DNA of 64,000 bases from Eledone cirrhosa (Eukaryota), in the NCBI GenBank assembly GCA_964016885.1, contig OZ024742.1, positions 339,326,001 to 339,390,000 of the forward strand, read 5' to 3'. How positions within the stretch are numbered: position 1 is the first letter of the stretch; each line of letters begins with the position of its first letter. A program made the translations under genes and the position numbers. Under the pieces are notes generated by a model. That model saw nothing but the letters and a program-made list of their open reading frames with translations. It was not told where the DNA came from and searched no databases. Positions 3,332 to 4,695 of this stretch are shown here, piece by piece.

Positions 3332-3527
3332 GAACTAACTGTTGTGTAACCACTTCTACCTAACTCGTCCTATGGACTGAGTGCTCTACCACTACCCATA
3401 TTACCTTCCAGTGTTCCACCACTATATATATATATATATAATATATATATATATATATATATATATATATATATATATATATATATATATATATATATAT
3501 ATATATATATATATATATATATATATA

Positions 3528-3639
3528 GGAACCAGTAAGACCCCGACAGCTGAGCTCAAGCCGTTTCGACGGCTAATTCTGGACTAAATGAAAATTTATC
3601 CTGGTATTTAAATAGCCGATCTTCTCAAGGGGTAATTCC
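3528..3639 (-). ncRNA. Type I hammerhead ribozyme, U3-A8 core variant
   Basis: Reverse complement of 4393-4504. Confidence 0.75.
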
Positions 3640-4392
3640 ATATATGGTCAAAGTGATTGTCAAAAATCAGTAGTAATTCTGTGGTTGCAAATTAGTAGGG
3701 GAGATGGTGGCTAAACCTGCCAGTAGGAGAAAGAGGGGAGGGGGTGGAGTAGACCCAATCAAGCGTTGGTAGTGCCAGCTACAGCTGGGCATGAGGTCAA
3801 AGAAGATACAGGGGAGGGGGAGGGGGAGGAAGTCGGAACGGTAGGTAGAACAATGGGGGGTAGAAATAGGAAAGAAAAAATACTGAGAGTGAAGAAAAGC
3901 AAATAAGTGTAAAGAAAAAAGTAAAGTAAATTAAATTCAACGACCTAGGTGTCAGGCTATTGTTAGGCGAGAATAAAATAAAGAAAGAATTTATTTATTT
4001 ATTTATTTATTTATTTATTTATTTATTTATTTACTTCTTTCTTTCTTTCTTTATTTTATTCTCGCCTAACAATAGCCTGACACCTAGGTCGTTGAATTTA
4101 ATTTACTTTACTTTTTTCTTTACACTTATTTGCTTTTCTTCACTCTCAGTATTTTTTCTTTCCTATTTCTACCCCCCATTGTTCTACCTACCGTTCCGAC
4201 TTCCTCCCCCTCCCCCTCCCCTGTATCTTCTTTGACCTCATGCCCAGCTGTAGCTGGCACTACCAACGCTTGATTGGGTCTACTCCACCCCCTCCCCTCT
4301 TTCTCCTACTGGCAGGTTTAGCCACCATCTCCCCTACTAATTTGCAACCACAGAATTACTACTGATTTTTGACAATCACTTTGACCATATAT

Positions 4393-4504
4393 GGAATTAC
4401 CCCTTGAGAAGATCGGCTATTTAAATACCAGGATAAATTTTCATTTAGTCCAGAATTAGCCGTCGAAACGGCTTGAGCTCAGCTGTCGGGGTCTTACTGG
4501 TTCC
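4393..4504 (+). ncRNA. Type I hammerhead ribozyme, U3-A8 core variant
   Basis: acccc-TTGAGAA(4404)-ga(t)cggcta...tagccgtc-GAAAC-ggct-tgagctc-agct-GTC(4485-4487)-ggggt; distal ggaat/gttcc. Confidence 0.75.
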
Positions 4505-4695
4505 TATTACCCACTCTACTACCTCAAGTATTGAGTACTTTGGTGCGTTATGGTCCACCTGGTTCCTTACCACATTTCCTTCGTTATATATATATATATA
4601 TATATATATATATATATATCAAATAAAATATAGAGTTAATAACTCATATAGATACCCTGCAATTAACAAGCTCAAAGTATAAATACTGAGCATTA

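Follow-up and report, generated by a model that had tools for sequence, protein, structure and literature searches.

A 64,000-nt stretch of Eledone cirrhosa DNA (hereafter the window) carries a perfect palindrome with a hammerhead ribozyme motif on each arm, which raises the question of how such a structure arose and whether the ribozyme plays any part in it. We find that the locus is probably one recent insertion of a Penelope-like retroelement (PLE) into (TA)n, in which the non-coding 3' end and its hammerhead alone were copied, giving a forward copy that bears a 77-nt tail and an inverted one that lacks it.

The arms of the hairpin (3525-3989 and 4043-4507) form a 100% complementary inverted repeat in the window sequence, and are thus exact reverse complements of 465 nt each, as the original prediction had it. 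Because no difference separates them (0/465, i.e. <0.64% at 95%), the event is probably recent. The original prediction had left a choice between a recent event and an assembly artefact; the former stands as probable, while the latter is disfavored by reads from across the family. Five other inverted units are present in the window, with arms 88–99% alike, and the 465-bp palindrome thus seems the youngest-looking of the six.

At the locus, (TA)n tracts flank a tailless inverted copy followed by a direct copy with a 77-nt tail. Specifically, the left (TA)n tract (3423..3527), presumed to be the target site, is followed by a copy of the 3' region of the element, inverted and 5'-truncated (3525..3989, minus strand), whose terminus reads TTCC|TAT and overlaps the (TA)n flank by 3 nt. 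A 53-nt spacer parts the arms (3990..4042, plus strand); it is mostly (TTTA)n, with TTTC repeats, and is likely the part of the direct copy immediately upstream of the inversion point. The direct copy continues on the plus strand with a pyrimidine-rich non-coding region resembling a 3' UTR or pLTR (4043..4392), where the longest stop-to-stop frames are 59–101 aa and of low complexity, and which does not significantly resemble the UTRs of the window's two protein-coding PLEs. Beyond the end first given for the hairpin, the right arm extends for 77 nt (4508..4584, plus strand) into the right (TA)n tract (4585..4619), whereas nothing separates the left arm from its (TA)n flank; this tail is found in the direct copy only, and is also seen as reads entering (TA)n near 4574-4584.

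Both arms hold a well-formed type I hammerhead with the predicted TTGAGAA core. The plus-strand motif spans 4393..4504, with the core UUGAGAA at 4404-10, and its mirror copy lies on the minus strand at 3528..3639, with the core at 3628-3622 and a predicted cut after 3545. In hammerhead numbering, T4404, T, G, A, G, A4409, and A4410 of the plus strand are U3, U4, G5, A6, N7 (here G), A8, and A9. The 3-8 pair, which helps to place the general acid, is Watson-Crick at this locus (U4404-A4409). Pair G10.1-C11.1, the 6-bp stem III with its palindrome, the GUC triplet, and the 5-bp stem I were all found as predicted. Pair 10.1-11.1 is G4411-C4464, with GAAA at 4465-4468; stem I joins 4399-4403 to 4488-4492, stem II joins 4411-19 to 4457-64 around a 37-nt loop, and stem III joins 4468-4473 to 4481-4486 (6 bp, one G-U), with the palindrome TGAGCTCA within it (4474..4481, plus strand). 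GTC occupies 4485-4487, so C17 is 4487 and the cut is predicted after 4487. The distal helix of the original prediction is also present, but its length had to be revised to 6 bp (4393-4398/4499-4504, two G-U). The remaining conserved positions, U4, G5, A6, N7, and A9, G12, A13, and A14, A15.1-U16.1, and H17, are all in place (4405-4410, 4465-4468, and 4486-4487), and the core sits 180 nt from the 3' end, in the pLTR-like terminal region.

The hammerhead motif was recovered in none of 5000 dinucleotide shuffles of 4043-4584, and the overall folding energy of this region is unremarkable (z -0.37). Searches with CUGANGA would miss the motif, as predicted, since its core reads UUGAGAA. Rfam returned no match at the gathering score, and no hammerhead family at the site of the motif even at E<=10, which may be owed to the long loops and the variant core. 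Over 2000-11000, the same E<=10 threshold gave 70 Rfam matches; most are miRNA models that align to hairpins and repeats, and none reaches the gathering score. Separately, a hairpin at 9306-9421 matches several sub-threshold miRNA models on both strands, and is probably a small palindromic element. As for the origin of the core, a one-base deletion in CUGAAGAA seems the less likely route: the cores of Hydra-type hammerheads already measure 7 nt and no insertion is listed at this site, so a G8A change from CUGAGGA would be simpler.

The hairpin belongs to a repeat family. An older sibling lies between (TA)n tracts at 5024..5231 (plus strand), with an inverted part (5024-5083) and a direct part with tail (5088-5231) that are 88% alike and hold only the 3' half of the hammerhead. 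A third, short copy (10768..10865, minus strand; 83%) retains the hammerhead 3' half and part of the tail. In public data, the stretch or part of it is present in 20 of the 24 runs listed, from 16 studies, with six runs holding at least half the words. Four of the 24 runs were aligned to 4060-4584, among them X24, which consists of raw reads, and X1 and X4, which consist of contigs. Loose ends at 4507 that continue as (AT)n occur in 3444 X24 reads, 75 X1 contigs, and 3 X4 contigs, and loose ends into TA occur at 4574 and 4581 in 1342 and 1251 X24 reads, respectively. The family thus has two termini in public reads, at 4504-4507 and at ~4584, and the end point of the 3525 arm recurs both in the sibling at 5024 and in the 3444 X24 reads. 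Together with 12 opposite-strand (strand-switch) joints listed in family reads, these loose ends indicate that two fixed termini and inversions are traits of the whole family.

Read depth over the last ~110 nt, gauged at 4474-4491, is 22x (X1) and 12x (X4) that over the core (4402-4419), suggesting that in most copies the ribozyme's 5' half is either missing or too divergent to align. X24 depth was left out of this estimate because some of its read ends fall on AATT sites; indeed, X24 read ends at 4342, 4395, 4398, 4439, and 4454 were rejected as termini, as they coincide with AATT and reflect library cut sites. Pattern scans found the family patterns absent from metagenome, viral, and prokaryote genome contigs. 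The literature searched holds no description of the family (Repbase and Dfam lay outside the search), and two family motifs have no match in the Craig et al. supplement (PMC8557442), where line breaks can hide matches.

These features agree with what has been published on PLEs. An inverted 5'-truncated copy with a tail at one end only is a PLE pattern (PMC8557442), for example Penelope-13_HM, whose inverted copy leaves a hammerhead on each strand (PMC8557442 supplement). Hammerhead pairs on opposite strands, 100–700 bp apart, are reported in PLEs (PMC4209133), and the PLE tail has been described as the stretch between two reverse transcription (RT) start sites, with an AT-rich target (PMC11167929). 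Hydra elements target (TA)n, and the features given for that clade include RWK, DKT, a CxCx5C linker, and no CCHH (PMC8557442). Insertion into (TA)n is seen for the hairpin family, but such targeting is not diagnostic of Hydra, because it is common to Neptune and Naiad. The family tail, at 77 nt, compares with 30–40 bp for published PLE tails.

We propose that the reverse transcriptase-endonuclease of a PLE, probably a member of the Hydra clade, would cut a (TA)n target and begin reverse transcription at two positions within the RNA, ~77 nt from each other. The resulting pair of 5'-truncated cDNAs would then join head to head, making the arms identical at the outset, and the use of two start sites would leave the tail on the direct copy but not on the inverted one. 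In the parent element RNA, the U3-A8 hammerhead may cut after C4487, either as a monomer or through a dimer at the palindromic stem III. At the locus itself the hammerhead is likely a passenger, since read-through RNA is predicted to bury the motif in the 465-bp duplex.

Coding PLEs of the same layout are found nearby. Four inverted units are unrelated to the hairpin family (2141-3349, 94%; 6962-7196, 98%; 9661-9856, 92%; and 60042-63440, 99%), and all four carry CUGANGA hammerhead-like motifs, the first and last recognized by eye only. The closest is a different PLE family with the same layout (2141..3422, plus strand; arms 2141-2642/2847-3349), which has one (TA)n tract in common with the 465-bp hairpin and includes an endonuclease frame with CxCx5C (2588-~3103), a small CUGAAGA hammerhead at ~3290, a T-rich tract after the ORF stop, and a ~73-nt tail. 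The endonuclease frames of this unit and of the one at ~59900-63440 both contain CxCx5C and CxxC..E..N..CxH. Frame 2588-~3103 has 4379 relatives at E<=0.001, of which two long ones (P0037 and P0134) are full RT and endonuclease (EN) proteins with RWR/RWK and DKT. Hence, among the Hydra motifs checked, CxCx5C occurs in these two other units of the window and RWK/DKT in their database relatives; assignment of the 2141..3422 unit to Neptune or Naiad was rejected, as the features given for the clades in PMC8557442 point to Hydra. Pfam missed the endonuclease of this unit and of five relatives, giving one sub-threshold GIY-YIG match (62186-62782), and a word-based protein search found no relatives. 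Comparison of the 3' ends of the hairpin family and the neighboring PLE gave a marginal likeness (its score was equalled or exceeded by 21 of 1000 shuffles), and none of three further comparisons for kinship between the family and the two coding PLEs reached significance.

Other repeats were also observed in the window. The larger PLE unit at ~59900-63440 has 1.26-kb arms 99% alike, a rearranged center, broken frames for an RT end and endonuclease (61600-62782), and, at 63281, a hammerhead-like CUGAGGA motif whose stem II region is ~85 nt long (recognized by eye; not the minimum free energy (MFE) fold). The pair at 6962-7196 (98%) is very short, adjoins (TA)n, and has a CUGAUGA hammerhead-like motif in each arm, with a fragment of the same family at 5694-5767. 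The short pair at 9661-9856 (92%) holds a full CUGAUGA hammerhead-like motif on its minus arm and only the 3' half on its plus arm. Broken non-LTR retrotransposon frames occupy 46451-48265 and 50246-54647; their motifs resemble endonuclease and RT, and by eye they look L1/Tx1-like. From 11947 to 39182, a 22-bp unit is repeated over 27 kb, and its plus strand is nearly devoid of G (GC skew ~-0.97). At least eight copies of a ~170-nt SINE-like repeat, 84–93% identical, lie at 4690-4890, 220-388, 8369-8505, 11015-11180, 39260, 41216, 57122, and 59395; we take this repeat to resemble octopod SINEs.

Given this context, we wondered whether the variant core is maintained across the family. T4404 is C in 60 of 354 X24 reads (17%), in 24% of X1 depth (28 contigs), and in 39% of X4 depth (1 contig). 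Among the rows listed (40 of 112), no A>G occurs at any place in any run, so G8 would be below 3%; this absence is itself odd, as 0 A>G against 24 T>C places gives p ~2e-5 among these rows under a naive model, and we do not rely on it by itself. As a separate observation, X24 variation over 4060-4584 comprises, among the rows listed, 58 C/T places vs 7 G>A and 0 A>G, an asymmetry that may reflect either strand-biased mutation or a property of the variant table. Contigs in X4 (4224-4469) and X6 (4296-4486) are identical to the window across the core. Independently of the missing A>G changes, X4 record 12 differs at six rows (4383, 4404, 4412, 4422, 4424, and 4439), combining C3 with A8, and its depth (22 vs 26 for the identical contig) suggests a subfamily and not an error. 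In the loose-end consensus, N7 is G, C, or A while A8 and A9 are unchanged, which supports the register of the core.

U3-A8 is therefore the majority state of the family, with A8 seemingly fixed and position 3 not fully constrained. The compensatory swap of the original prediction holds for this copy, where the pair is Watson-Crick, but not for the family at large, which includes a C3-A8 minority; the expectation that U3-A8 would be conserved among copies was thus only partly borne out, as position 3 varies (C in 17% of X24) with no G8 among the rows listed. Because position 3 varies while no G8 is seen, the 3-8 pair does not look strictly compensatory across the family. One further reading, which we consider unlikely, is that the multi-copy C3-A8 (mismatch) and U3-A8 (restored) subfamilies record a 3-8 pair evolving through a broken intermediate, CUGAGGA having given rise to CUGAGAA and this in turn to UUGAGAA. 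The ribozyme concerned would be full-size and monomer-competent, and would belong to an animal retroelement of very high copy number. If true, the coexisting subfamilies would permit a direct natural test of whether PLE mobility needs hammerhead cleavage.

Predicted folding depends strongly on context. In a 126-nt RNA (4385-4510), the hammerhead fold is the MFE structure, with the three-way junction in ~53% of the ensemble; its three helices surround the junction with the open end in stem I, at pair probabilities of 0.48–0.99. Longer single-arm RNAs (more than ~250 nt) are predicted to form the junction at mostly 0–3%, at best 34%. For those starting at 3990-4250 the prediction falls to 0–3%, because 4234-4255 is predicted to pair with 4476-4493. 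When pairing is capped at 150 nt, the predicted junction recovers to 10–53%. In an RNA holding both arms, the entire motif lies inside the long duplex, whichever strand is read. Stem III is also predicted to be able to pair as a dimer, with a folding energy for 4468-4486 of -4.9 kcal/mol alone and -26.3 as a self-dimer. U3-A8 is natural and active in vitro according to Perreault et al. (PMC3088659), and in a pairwise exhaustive screen of a type III hammerhead the 3-8 pair was rescued by a G-C swap only (PMC9901934). Self-cleavage of the present motif is plausible, though it would probably be slower than with a C3-G8 core.

These data bear on the best-surviving alternative, namely that the hammerhead is a relic, with A8 acquired by drift in a family that has no need for cleavage and with U3 and C3 near neutral. 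The C3 minority in X24, X1, and X4, without any A>G place listed, fits such drift, as do A4412>C in 163 of 365 reads, which breaks the second stem II pair, the ribozyme 5' half apparently missing from most copies, and the predicted junction of 0–3% in most long contexts; hammerhead mutants were also without effect on insertion of the Anolis PLE PAc in vitro (PMC11167929). However, U3 is the majority state, A8 and A9 stay while N7 varies, stems I–III and the rest of the core are intact, and the junction reaches 10–53% with pairing limited to 150 nt. Moreover, U3-A8 is found in nature in other lineages too, with activity reported in vitro (PMC4209133, PMC3088659). On balance we consider a relic unlikely, though a possibility of some weight, and it is compatible with the PLE insertion mechanism.

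A less probable alternative is that the family is non-autonomous—i.e. a short non-coding hammerhead unit, similar to a retrozyme or SINE, whose start lies at or close to the (TTTA)n spacer and which a PLE moves in trans. No ORF with telomerase-like RT and GIY-YIG endonuclease was found in the three copies of the window, the full-size stem III is nearer to those of stand-alone hammerheads, and animal retrozymes are reported to be non-autonomous PLE derivatives (preprint 10.64898/2026.07.22.740005). Read depth also drops at the 4060 end, possibly as an edge effect. Yet non-LTR retrozymes are described in the same preprint as head-to-tail tandems, an arrangement seen in none of the three window copies; the gradient in depth is what a longer, 5'-truncated element would give; and the neighboring PLE too has a T-rich tract after its ORF stop. 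We thus regard a non-autonomous family as decidedly unlikely, and the insertion mechanism would be the same.

That the perfect palindrome is an artefact of assembly or polishing, from a fold-back read or homogenized arms, is very improbable. It is true that 0 of 465 positions differ, against 88–99% identity in the other five units, and that public-read alignments cover 4060-4584 and not the hairpin center or the left junction. However, reads reveal a high-copy family with a terminus at 4507, exactly where the left arm stops, and strand-switch joints are present in its raw reads; in addition, the 53-nt spacer is unpaired, the flanks outside the arms differ, and older units with diverged arms share the layout. 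Lastly, a 465-bp duplex would be expected in read-through RNA, but a hairpin RNA gene under host selection (a small-RNA source or ribozyme-gated transcript) is hardly credible given the repeat-family context, the sole RNA run listed holding 0.04 of words, and Rfam miRNA matches that are far below the gathering score and expected from any long hairpin.

We therefore return to a PLE insertion and compare it with known systems. U3-A8 is reported in PLE hammerheads, with ~1,300 matches of the Cercyon type in Schistosoma mansoni (Cervera and de la Pena 2014, PMC4209133). The hammerhead at 4393..4504 resembles these in being type I, with U3-A8 in place of C3-G8, a PLE context, mostly truncated copies, opposite-strand pairs a few hundred bases apart, a palindromic stem III region, and G10.1-C11.1. 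The S. mansoni motifs are minimal: their stem III measures 1–2 bp, and an extra base separates positions 9 and 10.1. The present motif lacks that base, and it combines a stem III of 6 bp, closed by a 7-nt loop, with a 37-nt loop II and a distal helix on stem I.

The family is also similar to the Hydra clade (PMC8557442) in its (TA)n targeting, a hammerhead within ~200 nt of the 3' end, and an inverted 5'-truncated copy as in Penelope-13_HM, and the two protein-coding units of the window carry endonuclease motifs of that clade. No ORF in the window copies links the hairpin family to the clade, and its 77-nt tail sets it apart as well. In the Hydra rows listed in the Craig et al. 2021 supplement, 26 of 26 cores are CUGANGA with a shorter stem III, whereas the hairpin family has UUGAGAA and 6 bp. 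PAc, a Poseidon PLE from Anolis (Frangieh et al. 2024, PMC11167929), likewise has two fixed 3' termini bounding its tail, an AT-rich target, and a hammerhead upstream, but its hammerhead is minimal, C3-G8, protein-assisted, and overlapping the ORF start, and its tail is shorter. Non-LTR animal retrozymes are similar in being non-coding and PLE-related, with a type I hammerhead, but they form head-to-tail tandem units, while copies of the hairpin family are inverted pairs or single fragments.

Because the U3-A8 variant has already been described in PLEs, the locus is largely ordinary. Relative to S. mansoni, the full-size stem III and long loop II are different, as may be the clade. The locus adds an apparently unlisted high-copy PLE-type family and another lineage with a U3-A8 core, a contribution of modest weight. 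It is also a reminder that CUGANGA descriptors and Rfam overlook such motifs, and that perfect palindromes in microsatellite-rich animal genomes should first be read as PLE insertions. For specialists, the coexisting U3-A8 and C3-A8 subfamilies bear on whether hammerhead cleavage matters to PLE transposition.
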